A stretch of 64,000 bases of DNA, taken from sequence record KX130862, one strand, 5' to 3'. The position numbers and the translations under genes were made by a program. The notes under the pieces are model-generated. The model ran no database searches, had not been told where the DNA came from, and saw only the letters and a program-made list of their open reading frames with translations. The DNA is from Shigella phage SHFML-26. Shown here piece by piece: positions 10,621-14,977 of this stretch (position 1 is its first letter; each line of letters begins with the position of its first letter).

Positions 10621-11447
10621 AATAATATCCAATTTTTCCAAGCTTCATCAGTAGAATTACAGCGTTTTAGTATAAGATGTCTAGAAACTTTTATGGCATT
10701 TGAGCACTTTTTAATTGAATCATATTTAATACCGTCAACTGAAACGGTTTTGCTAGTTGGAGAAATTTTTCCATACATTGGATTTTTTGAACCAACTTGA
10801 AGTCCTTTTAAAGCTTTTGAAAGCTTTTGTCTAGATTCCAATGACATGGGAGAATTCTTTTTACCTTCAATAATTCGCTTGCGATGAAGTTCGCGTTCTT
10901 CTTCACTCAAAGAATTGTAATATTTTTTAACACCGTTTGATATAGATAATTTATCTTTCTCAGACCGCTCTCCAGCTAATTTACTTCTAACATCTTTTCG
11001 CTTCATAGCTATGCTTACGGCTTTATTTAAATTTGCTTGATGCTCTGGCGTACGTTTATATTTCTTTAAAGCACGTGAAATAGCTATTTTAGTTTCTTCT
11101 GTTCTCTTTTTACCTTTATTTGCTAAACTATTTTTGTGGCGATGTTCAAGTGTCTGTTCATAGGCAGTTCCACCTTTTCCACCAGGTTTAATATTATATG
11201 TATTTTCTTTTAGACAATACTCTTCAGTTACAAGTTCAGCTTCTTTATCATACATTTGCTTTTCATTATCAAAAACATATAAAATTTCTTTATAAAAATT
11301 TTTTCTACCATATTTTAATAAAGCAGCACGAATCAATGTTCCTGATCCCATATAACCGTCATTTATATTATCGGTGCTATGCGCACCGATATATTCCTTT
11401 GAATTAATTATATTTGTTATTTTATAAATTATATAATACCTATGCAT
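10617..11447 (-). CDS. GIY-YIG homing endonuclease (Seg-like)
   Basis: 276 aa; N-terminal GIY-YIG module (YYIIYKITN...EYIGAHST...GYMGSG); C-terminal NUMOD-like DNA-binding repeats; overlaps the nrdD stop and the nrdG start. Confidence 0.85.
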   Translation of the reverse strand: MHRYYIIYKITNIINSKEYIGAHSTDNINDGYMGSGTLIRAALLKYGRKNFYKEILYVFDNEKQMYDKEAELVTEEYCLKENTYNIKPGGKGGTAYEQTLEHRHKNSLANKGKKRTEETKIAISRALKKYKRTPEHQANLNKAVSIAMKRKDVRSKLAGERSEKDKLSISNGVKKYYNSLSEEERELHRKRIIEGKKNSPMSLESRQKLSKALKGLQVGSKNPMYGKISPTSKTVSVDGIKYDSIKKCSNAIKVSRHLILKRCNSTDEAWKNWILL

Positions 11448-13257
11448 GTTTTACTCGTTTTACCATTTCTTTCATTTTACCTAAATTCCATGGAACAACG
11501 CTAGGAGTTCCAAGATATCCGCATGTTCTTCTTATTGTATTCATCTTTTTAGGATCAGTTTCTCCACAAATAGAACAAACAAATCCGTTTTCAGTAGGAG
11601 TCATTTCATGGGTACTTCCGCATGTAAAACACTTATCTACTGGCATGTTAACACCAAAATAATCTAAATGTTGTACAGCATAATCCCATACAGCCTCAAG
11701 ACCTTTTAGGTTATTTTTCATATCAGGAAGTTCAACATAAGAAATGTGACCACCTGTCGCAATGAAATGATATGGCGCTTCACGAGAAATTTTTTCAAAC
11801 GGAGTAATATTTTCTTCTACTGAAACGTGGAAACTATTAGTGTACCAGCCTTTATCGGTAACATCTTTTACACTTCCATATTTTTCTGTATCAAGTTTAC
11901 AGAAGCGATAACAAAGGTTTTCAGCAGGAGTCGAATATAAACTAAAAGCAAATCCAGTTCTTTCAGTCCACTGTTTAAGATGAGCATTCATTTTAGTTAA
12001 AATTTCTTGTCCAATATCACGACCGACAAGAATATTCAATTCGTGAATACCAATGTATCCTAGGGACACTGAACTTCTACCATTTTTAAATAACTCAATT
12101 ATATCGTCATCAGGTTTAAGACGAACCCCGAATGCACCTTCTTGGTAAAGAATAGGAGCAACAGTCGCTTTAACTCCTTTTAAGGAACTAATTCTACACA
12201 TCAAAGCTTCAAAACATAAATCCATTCGTTCATTGAATAATTCAACAAATTTCTGTTCATTGAACTGTGTTCCAATATAAGAATCTAACGCGATGCGAGG
12301 AAGATTCAGTGTTACAACACCAAGATTATTACGTCCATCAAGAATTTCATTACCAGTCGAATCTTTCCATACGCTCAAGAAACTACGGCAACCCATTGGA
12401 GAAACAGGAATAGATGAACCAGTGATAGCTTTATTGTTCTTAGCTGAAATAATATCAGGATACATTCTTTTGCTTGCACACTCTAGAGCAAGCTGCTTAA
12501 TATCATAGTTCGGATCGTCTTTATAAAGATTAACACCTTCTTCAACAAACATAACAAGCTTAGGGAAAATAGGAGTTATCCCATCACGACCAAGACCTTT
12601 AATACGATTTTTCAGAATTGCTTTCTGAATCATTCGTTCAGTCCAGTCAGTTCCTGTACCAAATGTAATTGTTACAAAAGGAGTCTGTCCGTTTGAACTA
12701 AAGAGAGTATTTACTTCATATTCATAAGCTTGGAATGCATCGTATACGTCTTTTTCTGTTTTAGATTGAGCATAATTTAACGCATCAGCGATTTGCCATT
12801 TTTCTGCATCCTCAATATGTTTTGCATAGGTGCGTTTAACATAAGGAGAAAGTACTTTATCTACATTAGCAAAAGTCGTTCCGCCGTATTGGTGAGAAGC
12901 AACCTGTGCAGTAATTTGTGCCATAATTGCAGTAGCAACGCCAATTGATTTAGGAGTTTCAATCTGCGCATTACCTAGCTTAAATCCGTTCTCAAGCATT
13001 CCTTTTAAATCTACTAAACAGCAATTAGTAAATGGAAGAGCAGGGGAATAATCAATATCGTGGAAATGAATAATTCCGCTTTCATGCGCTTTCATAATAA
13101 AAGACGGGACCATATTTTTGGCAATGTGTTTAGACACAATACCAGCCATAAGGTCCCGTTGAGTTGGAAAAACACGAGAATCTTTATTAGCATTCTCGTT
13201 TAAAAGGTCTTTATTAGTTTTATGAATCAATCCTTCAATTTCTTTTTCAATTGTCAT
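11440..13257 (-). CDS. nrdD: anaerobic ribonucleoside-triphosphate reductase NrdD
   Basis: 605 aa continuous ORF; C-terminal glycyl-radical region and Cys-rich zinc site (CFTCGS...CSICGE); no intron interruption. Confidence 0.95.
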   Translation of the reverse strand: MTIEKEIEGLIHKTNKDLLNENANKDSRVFPTQRDLMAGIVSKHIAKNMVPSFIMKAHESGIIHFHDIDYSPALPFTNCCLVDLKGMLENGFKLGNAQIETPKSIGVATAIMAQITAQVASHQYGGTTFANVDKVLSPYVKRTYAKHIEDAEKWQIADALNYAQSKTEKDVYDAFQAYEYEVNTLFSSNGQTPFVTITFGTGTDWTERMIQKAILKNRIKGLGRDGITPIFPKLVMFVEEGVNLYKDDPNYDIKQLALECASKRMYPDIISAKNNKAITGSSIPVSPMGCRSFLSVWKDSTGNEILDGRNNLGVVTLNLPRIALDSYIGTQFNEQKFVELFNERMDLCFEALMCRISSLKGVKATVAPILYQEGAFGVRLKPDDDIIELFKNGRSSVSLGYIGIHELNILVGRDIGQEILTKMNAHLKQWTERTGFAFSLYSTPAENLCYRFCKLDTEKYGSVKDVTDKGWYTNSFHVSVEENITPFEKISREAPYHFIATGGHISYVELPDMKNNLKGLEAVWDYAVQHLDYFGVNMPVDKCFTCGSTHEMTPTENGFVCSICGETDPKKMNTIRRTCGYLGTPSVVPWNLGKMKEMVKRVKHA

Positions 13258-13727
13258 TTTAAACTCTTTCTAAGCTGCTTCTTAAATGAAGCTATTAACT
13301 GTGTTTTGGTGTCAGATTCATTATATTCAAATCCTCTTTGAAGCATCTCGGCCATCATTTCCTCTTTTCCTAAACGAGAAAATTCCTTTGATTTATCTCC
13401 AACAAAGTTAGGGTGAATATTATTTTGGGTGTAATCGGATTTTAAATAAGTAAGTAAATTTTCTAACCATTCAAGATAATCAACACCTTGACCCTTTAAG
13501 CCAGAACGATTAAATTTGTGCTTCATTTGACCTTCTGCAGCATTGCAGAGATTACAAAGCAATCCACGTACCTTTCCTGCTTTTGGTCCATTTAATTCAT
13601 GGTCATGATCGAGGTGATTAGATTGAACATCAGGATTTAATTCTCGTTGGCAAATTAAGCATTTACCGTTTTGTGCATCATAAAATTTCTGTTTTTCTTC
13701 TTTGTATAATTTGCCAGTCAATAACAT
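13254..13727 (-). CDS. 49: endonuclease VII (Holliday junction resolvase)
   Basis: 157 aa; N-terminus MLLTGKLYKEEKQKFYDAQNGKCLICQREL with the zinc-binding Cys cluster; length equals T4 gp49. Confidence 0.95.
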   Translation of the reverse strand: MLLTGKLYKEEKQKFYDAQNGKCLICQRELNPDVQSNHLDHDHELNGPKAGKVRGLLCNLCNAAEGQMKHKFNRSGLKGQGVDYLEWLENLLTYLKSDYTQNNIHPNFVGDKSKEFSRLGKEEMMAEMLQRGFEYNESDTKTQLIASFKKQLRKSLK

Positions 13728-13767
13728 AATAAAACCCTTACCTTAAATAGATAAGGGTATTTATTAT

Positions 13768-13816
13768 TTAAGTATTGTAAAACATTCGATGCAATCGTTT
13801 ATACTGTCGAATCATC
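13768..13816 (-). repeat. direct repeat copy 1 of the pin 3' end (about 48 bp)
   Basis: aagtattgtaaaacattcgatgcaatcgtttatactgtcgaatcatc versus aagtattataaaacatttgatgcaatcgcttatattgccgaatcatt at about 13983-14030; a second shorter repeat (cagaaaaagaattttg) near 13957 and 14037. Confidence 0.6.
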
Positions 13817-13944
13817 TTTTTAGTAGGACGAGAATAGGTTCCTACGCAAGTGGTCATATGAGGGTCCGTAGAATGTCCTTTAATAAAAAGTTTCCAAACC
13901 TTACCGCCATTTAACTTTTCAGTATAAACCAATTCGGTTTTCAT
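13768..13944 (-). CDS. small ORF (58 aa) sharing its last 15 residues with Pin
   Basis: ATG-initiated minus ORF MKTELVYTEKLNGG...MIRQYKRLHRMFYNT; the C-terminus is encoded by a direct repeat of the pin 3' end; below the track cutoff. Confidence 0.3.
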   Translation of the reverse strand: MKTELVYTEKLNGGKVWKLFIKGHSTDPHMTTCVGTYSRPTKKMIRQYKRLHRMFYNT

Positions 13945-13980
13945 TAAAATGCCTTGTCAGAAAAAGAATTTTGAGTTTTT

Positions 13981-14466
13981 TCAAGTATTATAAAACATTT
14001 GATGCAATCGCTTATATTGCCGAATCATTTGGTCAGAAAAAGAATTTTGTGTTTCAAGCCATTCAATGTACTCTGCGGCAGCTTGCATTAAATTTCCTTC
14101 ATAACCATCAATATCTTTTTTCAATGCCACTTTAGCTAATGCATATGAAATACGTTCACCTTGAAAAGCGGCTTTAGGCTTCTGAGCATCTTGGCTAGTT
14201 CTCTCTACAACTTCTTCAATTTCGCCATTTTCAACGGATTCAGTATTCCACAAGCACCAATACGTAATTGGCTTATCATAGATGTTAATAATCTTTCCGT
14301 CGGAAAGTTCAATTTCAATAATTCCAGTATCAGGCTCTATATCATCTTCACATTCTTTTGTAAGTTCACGAACTTTAAAGACAGTACCTGCACTAAGTTC
14401 CGGCCAGTAATTACATAGCCCTGTATCAACACGATTAATTCTAAACCACTTATCTACTGTAATCAT
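13981..14466 (-). CDS. pin: Pin, inhibitor of host Lon protease
   Basis: Track ORF 13981..14484 begins at TTG; the ATG at MITVDKWFRINRV gives 161 aa as in T4 Pin; positioned next to gene 49. Confidence 0.7.
   Translation of the reverse strand: MITVDKWFRINRVDTGLCNYWPELSAGTVFKVRELTKECEDDIEPDTGIIEIELSDGKIINIYDKPITYWCLWNTESVENGEIEEVVERTSQDAQKPKAAFQGERISYALAKVALKKDIDGYEGNLMQAAAEYIEWLETQNSFSDQMIRQYKRLHQMFYNT
13983..14055 (-). repeat. direct repeat copy 2 (3' end of pin)
   Basis: See copy 1. Confidence 0.6.
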
Positions 14467-14617
14467 GTCCCATCTCCATATCAATTAAGTCATTTATCGT
14501 TGGTTCATTATATACTGTTTCTTCATCAGTGTAAACCGGTTCTTCCGGCTCTGGCTCTACAGTTTCCCATCTAGCCGCCCACCAGGGTTTAACCCCGAAG
14601 CTTATTAAGTTCTTCAT
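14450..14617 (-). CDS. small ORF (about 55 aa)
   Basis: ATG-initiated minus ORF MKNLISFGVKPWW... filling the gap upstream of pin; below the track cutoff. Confidence 0.25.
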   Translation of the reverse strand: MKNLISFGVKPWWAARWETVEPEPEEPVYTDEETVYNEPTINDLIDMEMGHDYSR

Positions 14618-14759
14618 AATCAATCCAGGATTCTAGTCCTGATGGCAAATCAGATTCAATTTCCCAAAGAAGCTCTTCAATTTTCTGAAGACGATCTAGT
14701 TCTTCAGCTGGAATAGTAACCATTGATGGAGTTCTTGATACACTAATATCGTAAATCAT
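14589..14759 (-). CDS. small hypothetical protein
   Basis: Track ORF 14589..14798 starts at GTG; the internal ATG (MIYDISV...) abuts the upstream stop. Confidence 0.4.
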   Translation of the reverse strand: MIYDISVSRTPSMVTIPAEELDRLQKIEELLWEIESDLPSGLESWIDYEELNKLRG

Positions 14760-14761
14760 AT

Positions 14762-14977
14762 TTACCCCAGTTTGACCATGCAATCGCCGTATTTCCACTT
14801 AGAAATAGACTTTTCGCCATTAGAATAATAAACTTCGAGTTTAGCACGGTTATTTTTAATTTGAATAACCTTGGCTGTCATTAAAGTTCCATACCCATAG
14901 TAAACTGCAACTTCATCACCTACATATACCGCGCTTCCGCGGTAATCATGGATATAATCAGTTCCTTCGAGCATCAT
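14762..14977 (-). CDS. hypothetical protein
   Basis: 71-aa ORF; ATG overlaps the nrdC stop (ATGA). Confidence 0.5.
   Translation of the reverse strand: MMLEGTDYIHDYRGSAVYVGDEVAVYYGYGTLMTAKVIQIKNNRAKLEVYYSNGEKSISKWKYGDCMVKLG

Follow-up and report, generated by a model that had tools for sequence, protein, structure and literature searches.

Sequence comparisons point to a DUF7279-derived tail on the T4-type Pin protein and to an ordinary recombination scar between pin and gene 49

The interval between gene 49 and pin in Shigella phage SHFML-26 (sequence record KX130862; the window is the whole stretch of 64,000 nucleotides that was analyzed) is a real but ordinary recombination scar, and its arrangement is common in sequenced phages. 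As judged from comparisons with related phages, the C-terminal 15 residues of T4 PinA appear to derive from the neighbouring DUF7279 gene, which is a modestly new point. The best explanation of the locus, which we consider probable, is a deletion that fused pin to this small gene, followed by a join between two alleles. The window allele contains two novel joints, namely the fusion of pin to its tail and the join of this tail to a relic of an ancestral pin end. A sequence-only reading of the window had proposed a remnant of a duplication or deletion at the pin locus. This was essentially right, with the events taking the form of a 137-nt deletion fusion and a rejoined intact small gene.

The source phage is T4-like (Tequatrovirus). 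A 1301-nt query from the locus matched 712 phage records with a top identity of 98.4%, and 511 records matched the locus at an identity of at least 90%. According to the list of open reading frames, nrdD, gene 49, the 58-aa ORF and pin are all located on the minus strand (Table 1). The order on the coding strand is the pin body, R2, R1 with its stop codon, an A-run, R2' and 'aaggcatttta', followed by the ATG and 43 codons of the small gene, R1' with its stop codon, AATAAATA, the leader hairpin and gene 49. Gene 49 is the constant downstream neighbour in every allele, and the hairpin of its leader, which contains the ribosome-binding site of gene 49, was found in all alleles compared. A hairpin-sequestered ribosome-binding site controls translation in T4 late genes (Barth et al. 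1988, as cited in PMC2988022). In SA35RD, TATAAATA is annotated as a late promoter at the position that matches AATAAATA in the window. The only strong promoter-like site in the scan is the early-promoter-like site upstream of pin, and it would be the probable source of a transcript carrying both pin and the small gene.

Table 1. Features of the nrdD–pin region of the window.
Feature	Position	Strand	Basis or remark
nrdD	11440-13257	-	
Gene 49 (endonuclease VII, 157 aa)	13254..13727	-	ORF list; annotated endonuclease VII in matching phage records
Gene 49 leader hairpin, 10 bp stem, 5-nt loop	13734..13758	-	Terminator-like hairpin scan and inverted repeat I2
Late-promoter-like AATAAATA, preceding the gene 49 leader hairpin	13758-13765	-	
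R1', native small-gene tail: codons 44-58 and stop at 13768-13815, plus 4 nt of 3' flank	13764..13815	-	D1
Small gene (ORF58, DUF7279 / phrog_3272), ATG start, 58 aa, ending ...MIRQYKRLHRMFYNT before the stop	13768..13944	-	
X, stretch between R1' and R2', 140 nt	13816..13955	-	Absent from T4-type phages
Relic of ancestral pin 3' end, 34 nt, reading ..KTQNSFSDKAF before the stop	13945..13978	-	D2 and colinearity
R2', within the relic pin end	13956-13978	-	D2
Novel joint of the window-type allele	13971..13985	-	Sequences of six window-type phages
R1, putatively borrowed tail ending pin: codons 147-161 and stop at 13981-14028	13977..14028	-	D1
pin (161 aa, PinA / Inhibitor_I24 and putatively DUF7279-derived tail), ending ...MIRQYKRLHQMFYNT before the stop	13981..14466	-	
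R2, native pin codons ..ETQNSFSD directly before the fusion point	14032..14054	-	D2 and Pin alignment
Early-promoter-like site TTTACA-17-TATAAT, 11/12 matches, upstream of pin	14507..14535	-	Consensus scan

The repeat search identified two direct repeats in the interval. The first repeat, D1, relates R1' to R1 and extends over 52 nt with 87% identity and a spacing of 213, in agreement with the repeat of roughly 48 bp and about 85 percent identity that had been described from the sequence. The second repeat, D2, relates R2' to R2 and extends over 23 nt with 96% identity and a spacing of 76. A second repeat of 16-22 bp had been claimed to precede each copy of the first; such a repeat exists, but its placement is unlike between the two copies. 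The top ungapped direct-repeat score in 13600-14200 was 31, which is well beyond the background obtained from 200 dinucleotide shuffles (9.6 +/- 1.1, maximum 13). Within the 48 coding bases of the two tail copies we observed six differences, of which four are silent, one converts a stop codon into another (TGA/TAA) and one exchanges Q and R. The C-termini of the small ORF and Pin are thus near-identical over the last 15 codons, with a single amino-acid change, as had been noted along with the ATG-initiated 58-aa ORF between gene 49 and pin, whose coordinates and C-terminus were both confirmed.

R2 and R1 are contiguous in pin, at a distance of 3 nt, whereas R2' and R1' are parted by the 140-nt single-copy stretch X, and it is on this asymmetry that our interpretation of the locus is based. 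The first 43 codons of the small gene fall within X, along with the final codons of the relic pin end and, in these, the Shine-Dalgarno motif AAGG. X is present in 264 of the 712 locus-carrying phage records and is missing in T4. A simple tandem segmental duplication was rejected as an account of the locus, since only 52 + 23 nt are doubled and the 140 nt between R1' and R2' are present in a single copy.

The 58-aa ORF was matched over nearly its whole length by family profiles. Pfam PF23945 (DUF7279) scored 62.7 bits (cut-off 24.5, E 3e-17) and aligned residues 7-56 to positions 1-53 of the 53 in the profile, while phrog_3272 aligned residues 1-58 to positions 1-58 of 59 (E 3.4e-34). The dN/dS ratios against orthologues from Tequatro-, Dhaka-, Gapriver- and Mosigvirus ranged from 0.08 to 0.24, with even lower values in the tail. 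Among 11 aligned members from five genera, the tail holds six of the nine invariant positions (T41, R46, K49, R50, R53 and F55), and the most conserved segment of the family is the basic C-terminal RPTKKMIRQYKRLHRxFYN. The Shine-Dalgarno motif of the small gene, AAGG at 13952-13955, is located inside the relic pin end, 7 nt ahead of the ATG, and the U115 record contains a ribosome-binding site annotated by software at the matching place. Based on these comparisons, the small ORF is a real gene, and both pin and the small gene appear to remain under constraint at the protein level in the window-type allele.

An alternative would be that the 58-aa ORF is a non-functional leftover whose similarity to Pin reflects decaying duplicated DNA. 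This agrees with the dispensability of the gene, which was lost at least twice in Tequatrovirus and whose body is missing from about 330 of about 505 Tequatrovirus records. The full-length membership in both the Pfam and PHROG families and the low dN/dS ratios over five genera are difficult to reconcile with such decay, as is the finding that the gene was intact, with a properly spaced Shine-Dalgarno sequence, in all six window-type phages examined. We therefore consider the leftover explanation extremely unlikely.

The distribution of the gene suggests that it is an old stand-alone gene next to gene 49. Its position, just ahead of the gene 49 leader, is the same in loci of Tequatro-, Dhaka-, Gapriver- and Mosigvirus. 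Stand-alone genes with the tail were observed beside gene 49 in the Tequatroviruses HY01, NBG2, F25 and pSs-1, in the Dhakaviruses JS10 and UGJNEcP4, in the Gaprivervirus phages VR7 and RZ, and in the Mosigvirus SA35RD, where the gene is annotated as similar to RB69ORF087c. VR7ORF082c is in turn annotated as similar to JS98 ORF076c. In Gelderlandvirus, a related gene is present away from any annotated gene 49. The database annotation of DUF7279 is a domain of unknown function, records of sequenced phages list the small ORF as a hypothetical protein, and a literature search retrieved no papers on DUF7279, RB69ORF087c, ORF076c or VR7ORF082c.

T4 PinA is the reference phage inhibitor of the E. 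coli Lon protease, and is used as a reagent. The biochemistry of Lon binding and inhibition concerns T4 PinA only, as cited in PMC8835725. In the window, the 161-aa product of pin was matched by Pfam PF10465 at residues 4-140 (155.9 bits, cut-off 27, E 7.4e-46) and by phrog_2167 at residues 1-146. The Pin profiles thus end at residue 140 (Pfam) or 146 (PHROG), and residues 146-161 were instead matched by positions 43-58 of phrog_3272, which places the last 15 residues outside of the Pin domain in the profile test. The alignment of Pin proteins confirmed that the tail is absent from the Pins of HY01, F25, UGJNEcP4 and SA35RD. More broadly, the Pins of Mosigvirus, Dhakavirus and many Tequatroviruses are tail-less, with ...SFSD(R/K/E)AF as the typical end. 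In HY01, NBG2, F25 and pSs-1, Pin is 148 aa long and ends with ...SFSDRAF, the stop codon and the ATG of the small ORF share one base (TAATG), and the tail MIRQYKRLHRMFYNT is found on the small ORF only. The pin gene of the Dhakavirus UGJNEcP4 encodes 140 aa ending with ...YSDEAF, and that of the Mosigvirus SA35RD encodes 137 aa ending with ...YLERRLS, followed by the small ORF, the late promoter, the hairpin and gene 49. This outgroup comparison indicates that the tail on the T4-type Pin is the derived state. The C-terminus was not mentioned in the PinA papers found in the literature search.

The comparison of the 49–pin interval with related phages, as recommended by the sequence-only reading, told T4-type, unfused and window-type alleles apart. 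The interval in T4 (NC_000866) resembles that of the window in having the same genes, order and strand and the same gene 49 leader hairpin, as well as a Pin of 161 aa with the tail ...MI(R/Q)QYKRLHQMFYNT. However, there is no small ORF in T4, where pin ends with ...SFSDRMIQQYKRLHQMFYNT at a distance of 41 nt from gene 49; the corresponding spacing in the window is 253 nt, with an extra 213-nt unit that consists of the relic and the intact small gene. The unfused phages HY01, NBG2, F25, SA35RD, JS10 and VR7 share with the window the DUF7279 gene directly upstream of the gene 49 leader. They differ from it in showing no duplication and in having a pin gene that ends with ...SFSDRAF without the tail, whereas in the window a tailed pin is placed in front.

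The relic in the window is colinear with the genuine pin ends of HY01, F25 and UGJNEcP4 (...SFSD(R/E)AF with the TAATG overlap), and its stop codon shares 1 nt with the small gene's ATG in the same manner (TAATG). At the joint, the end of the fused pin, aCTTGA (stop codon at 13981-13983), passes through the A-run into ctcaa of the relic pin end. The joint sequence reads aCTTGAAAAA(A)CTCAAAA, and CTTGAAA is found at both parental sites, once behind the tail (aataCTTGAAAAtaataa) and once where R2 begins (tggCTTGAAActcaaa). The A-run contained 5-7 A among the six window-type phages, which suggests that slippage has occurred. A clean crossover inside CTTGAAA would leave 3 A, and we assume either later slippage or another joint to account for the 5-7 A present. 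Apart from the length of the A-run, the joint was the same in 112 records (60-nt query, at least 80% covered).

The two tail copies of the window-type phages have different affinities. R1 showed 0-3 differences in 48 positions from the pin tails of T4, T2 and RB3, always with the Q codon caa, and R1' showed 0-1 differences from the stand-alone tail of F25, always with the R codon cga. R1 and R1' in one and the same genome differed at 4-7 positions. These unlike affinities favour recombination between a fused and an unfused allele. In SG1, R1 is identical to that of RB3 and R1' to that of HY01, suggesting that segments are still exchanged between alleles. In 109 window-type records, the small gene has a body with an identity of at least 99%, and the contrast with the diverged R1 and R1' makes the tail copies look older than the spread of the allele.

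Based on these observations, we infer the following order of events, with each recombination as a single step. Ancestrally, pin would have encoded 148 aa (...SFSDRAF), with one base shared between its stop codon and the small gene's ATG. A deletion of 137 nt in one Tequatrovirus lineage would then have removed the last three pin codons, the stop codon and codons 1-43 of the small gene, joining pin after ...SFSD(R) in frame to codon M44 of the small gene and giving rise to the 161-aa T4 Pin. The sequence that is lacking in T4 is 'gcatttta' and the 43 codons, and the 137 nt correspond to 13816-13952 in the window. This resembles the classical deletion fusions of T4, such as the rII deletion r1589, which joins the rIIA and rIIB cistrons, in that the loss of a 3' gene end together with the beginning of the following gene yields an in-frame hybrid protein. 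It differs in that the pin fusion is a natural fixed allele, found in 258 genomes including T4, and in that the donor gene would later have been restored beside the fusion. No microhomology was seen by inspection at the T4-type fusion joint when compared to the HY01 sequence. A possible 3-nt AAG was noted at this joint with the relic variant of the window only, and is not decisive.

The window allele would be a later chimera. Its left part would come from a fused T4-type pin, to just past the stop codon, and its right part from an unfused allele, of whose pin it would retain roughly the last 34 nt. The two parts may have been joined at or near the CTTGAAA microhomology, in a joint that would since have become the variable A-run, by an illegitimate or microhomology event during mixed infection with a T4-type and an F25-like phage. 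The repeats would then be by-products of the join, with R1/R1' representing the tail twice and R2/R2' the 3' end of pin twice. The relic has probably been kept since it supplies the Shine-Dalgarno sequence of the small gene.

Crossovers between the repeats were simulated in silico. A crossover between R1 and R1' removed 213 nt and produced a 161-aa Pin in an arrangement colinear with T4 (507 identities in 552 columns, with indels of only 1-2 nt, in the leader). A crossover between R2 and R2' removed 76 nt and produced an arrangement colinear with F25, with a 148-aa Pin ending with ...SFSDKAF and overlapping the small gene. Recombination in T4 requires only small patches of homology, of less than 50 bp (Singer et al. 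1982, as cited in PMC2839356), which makes such a collapse of the allele plausible. Even so, the presence of the window-type allele in 112 genomes shows that it is reasonably stable.

The products of these crossovers also allow for an in-situ route, in which a tandem duplication of the pin 3' end and the small gene in an HY01-type phage, followed by loss of the first body, would yield the window type; the T4 type would then be derived from it by R1 x R1' and the F25-like type by R2 x R2'. The same anatomy is explained, and each simpler allele is one homologous deletion away from the window type. Moreover, F25-like genomes, which combine the ancestral structure with a window-like body, are rare, as would be expected of secondary derivatives (about 2, estimated from 114 records with the body at an identity of at least 95% and 112 with the joint). 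This route, however, requires three events to arrive at T4 instead of one, along with a precise internal deletion in a fresh duplication. Against it also stands the apparent age of the tail copies, since R1 and R1' have diverged by 10-15% and 109 records share a body with at least 99% identity. No tandem pair of full small-gene bodies was evident across the searched phage records; one extra place recurred in every query, presumably from a single record with the whole region twice. We consider the in-situ route unlikely, and favour the deletion fusion followed by the join of two alleles.

The census of alleles, for which the INPHARED collection served as the database, distinguished four structural types. 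The T4 type was found in approximately 258 records (96-nt query of R2, R1 and leader, at least 80% covered in one place) and the window type in approximately 112 records (60-nt query across the joint of tail and relic, at least 80% covered). Phages of the window type include U115, SHFML-11 and WilhelmHis. The ancestral type was estimated at about 64 records, as the difference between 176 records with the small-gene body at an identity of at least 90% and the 112 of the window type. The fourth, Sf22 type (about 71 records), has the native end of a 148-aa pin and an almost wholly deleted small gene (...gcgTTTTAATacttgaaaataataaat). The ancestral and Sf22 types together comprise 135 records, and the four alleles sum to about 505, as compared to the 511 records that match the locus at an identity of at least 90%.

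The second alternative of the sequence-only reading was a recombination module by which gene bodies are exchanged ahead of a shared C-terminal and 3' UTR segment. As a pattern, several bodies with one tail, this was borne out, and recombination at the tail has recurred, but no dedicated mechanism was found. If the tail and the gene 49 leader served as a recombination site for dedicated cassette exchange, as in a PeSL-like or homing target, one would expect the same tail and leader behind several bodies, and they are indeed found behind pin (T4), a b-type body and an a-type body (PECP20). Mosigvirus pin lies between two DUF7279 paralogs, an a-type upstream (MQVKLLYRLL...RNFYREY) and a b-type downstream. 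PECP20 and about a fifth of the Mosigvirus records lack pin and the b body, and have instead a hybrid gene with a crossover in ACTTTTATA, a sequence common to both tails. An independent fusion, in which pin is joined at ACGTTT to the last 9 residues of b, was observed in a single assembled Mosigvirus contig (Logan SRR20302901). Yet the joints all differ (blunt, AAT/TTTTA, ACGTTT, ACTTTTATA and CTTGAAA), and the length of the tail that is kept varies between about 15, 9, 3 or 0 codons. The 213-nt unit encodes the 58-aa protein only, without a nuclease or recombinase domain, and the repeats are coding sequences with mostly silent differences, which argues for constraint on the protein rather than on a site. 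Dedicated exchange is thus most improbable, and the observations agree with ordinary recombination, of the short-homology and illegitimate kinds, and with subsequent selection that would spare the essential gene 49 leader. The insertion of a homing endonuclease or mobile element was also rejected, as the unit, located between pin and gene 49, encodes DUF7279 only, and the annotations of the pin–49 interval in related phages include no homing endonuclease gene.

The locus shares some features with the PeSL-mediated modular shuffling of T4-type phages (Arbiol et al. 2010, PMC2839356; Comeau et al. 2014, PMC4122927). In both cases, a hyperplastic region contains a small accessory ORF between short direct repeats (about 50 bp or less), here R1 and R1' around the 213-nt unit, whose body is present in 264 of 712 records, and the phage's own recombination system would be able to excise or insert the unit. 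PeSLs, however, are intergenic composites of an early promoter and a stem-loop, whereas the repeats in the window are coding 3' ends that would owe their origin to one particular fusion and join, not to a dispersed family of motifs. A scan of R1, R1', R2 and R2' revealed no promoter-like or terminator-like site, and the only hairpin in the scan was that of the gene 49 leader. Membership among the PeSLs was rejected, as the repeats contain neither a promoter nor a GC-rich stem-loop.

It is also conceivable that the tail DNA is kept for the expression of gene 49, for example by a reading frame that ends before the leader hairpin, and that the repeat in the proteins is incidental. An ORF does stop 5-11 nt before the hairpin with the ribosome-binding site in most alleles. 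The Sf22-type phages (about 71 records) nevertheless have an intact gene 49 without the small gene and most of the tail, and their Pin stops about 20 nt before the hairpin. In the window, R1 is located away from gene 49, yet its frame is kept and its differences from R1' are mostly silent. A role of this kind is accordingly very unlikely.

Structural models were obtained with AlphaFold2. The small protein was modelled as three beta strands and a C-terminal helix, residues 42-56, which corresponds to the tail. The quality was moderate, with a pLDDT of 81.6 for the best model and about 53 for the other four. If the model is right, the piece transferred to Pin would essentially be the predicted C-terminal helix. 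A Foldseek search of the model against the PDB gave no significant match (best E 0.27), and the model of Pin was poor (pLDDT 61.5). Two captures of the tail by Pin were observed, the T4-type fusion in Tequatrovirus and the independent 9-residue fusion in the Mosigvirus contig. It is nonetheless doubtful that DUF7279 has, in its basic C-terminal helix, a functional module that can be transferred and that has been captured by Pin more than once. An obligate partnership of the two proteins is disfavoured, as either gene often occurs alone: the PECP20-type phages have no pin, and the Sf22-type and T4-type phages have no small-gene body. Were the helix such a module, the small protein and Pin would share a target, either Lon or a Lon substrate, and the 161-aa T4 PinA would be functionally unlike the ancestral 148-aa Pin.

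The putative origin of the Pin tail outside of the Pin family bears on the reading of structure-function work on PinA. About a quarter of the Tequatrovirus genomes and the other genera examined have a tail-less Pin, which bears on the design of PinA constructs. With four structural alleles that are able to interconvert, and with joints that can be read at base resolution, the locus provides a worked example of phage mosaicism. It reveals no new mechanism, and illustrates how short-homology recombination shapes the hyperplastic regions of T4-like phages.

The small DUF7279 gene was missing almost in its entirety from phages Sf22 and sutha, the deletion lying between TTTTAAT and TTTTACAAT. Pin in these phages is 148 aa long and keeps its own stop, about 20 nt ahead of the gene 49 hairpin. 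This arrangement is a fourth Tequatrovirus allele at the pin locus. Minor length variation was also observed among the phages with the window-type allele, where the run of A at the duplication joint (window 13971-13980) contains 5 to 7 A; this small slippage-prone tract is located in the untranslated spacer 3' of the pin stop.

Deletion and fusion were both observed in Mosigvirus, in which DUF7279 paralogs flank pin (a-type upstream, b-type downstream). In PECP20-type phages, pin and the body of the b-type gene are gone and a hybrid small gene remains beside gene 49. The crossover site of this deletion is ACTTTTATA, which is present inside both paralog tails, and the deletion was found in about 6 of 30 rows sampled evenly from 151 records. 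A fusion of Mosigvirus pin with the end of the downstream small gene was identified in a Logan contig (SRR20302901); the fused Pin ends in EYLERRFHRDFYNVY followed by the stop, with the joint within ACGTTT. Judged from this single, unconfirmed contig, the fusion appears to have arisen independently and to parallel the T4-type joining of pin to the small-gene tail. The 191-aa Mosigvirus protein P0037 from ENA is an in-frame fusion at the other end of Pin, whose N-terminus is preceded by an a-type DUF7279; read-through, a change of 1 nt or an artefact of gene calling could account for it.

The genera of JS10 and VR7 have a rearranged pin locus that is apparently also permuted. In both phages pin has shrunk to a 57-aa piece whose match to the Pin profile is confined to the C-terminal third of the profile. 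This piece is followed by an ORF of 100 aa in JS10 and of 90 aa in VR7, and then by the small gene; the 100-aa ORF of JS10 has a weak match to the Pin profile, in the N-terminal part of that profile.

Features at the pin locus and neighboring genes, with coordinates in the window or in the respective locus
Feature	Source	Position
nrdD, single unbroken 605-aa ORF	window	11440-13257
Genes between pin and nrdC	window	14450-14977
Rearranged pin locus	JS10 (L005)	1326-1807
Rearranged pin locus	VR7 (L017)	1329-1774
DUF7279 paralogs (a-type, b-type) either side of pin	Mosigvirus SA35RD (L018)	706-876 and 1301-1480
Hybrid small gene adjoining gene 49	PECP20 (L019)	1301-1471
Mosigvirus pin plus last 9 residues of downstream small gene, in frame	Logan contig (L021)	1501-1926
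Near-complete small-gene deletion	Sf22 (L022)	790-815
Near-complete small-gene deletion	sutha (L023)	790-812

Differences from T4 were also evident in neighboring genes. The T4 nrdD is interrupted by a group I intron encoding I-TevII, whereas the window phage lacks that intron. Between pin and nrdC, the window has three ORFs, of 57 aa (49.1-like), 69 aa and 71 aa, a gene set that is not the same as 49.1, 49.2 and 49.3 of T4; HY01 has a 64-aa ORF annotated as an antitoxin in this interval. The departure from the T4 gene content between pin and nrdC is a further sign of a hyperplastic region.
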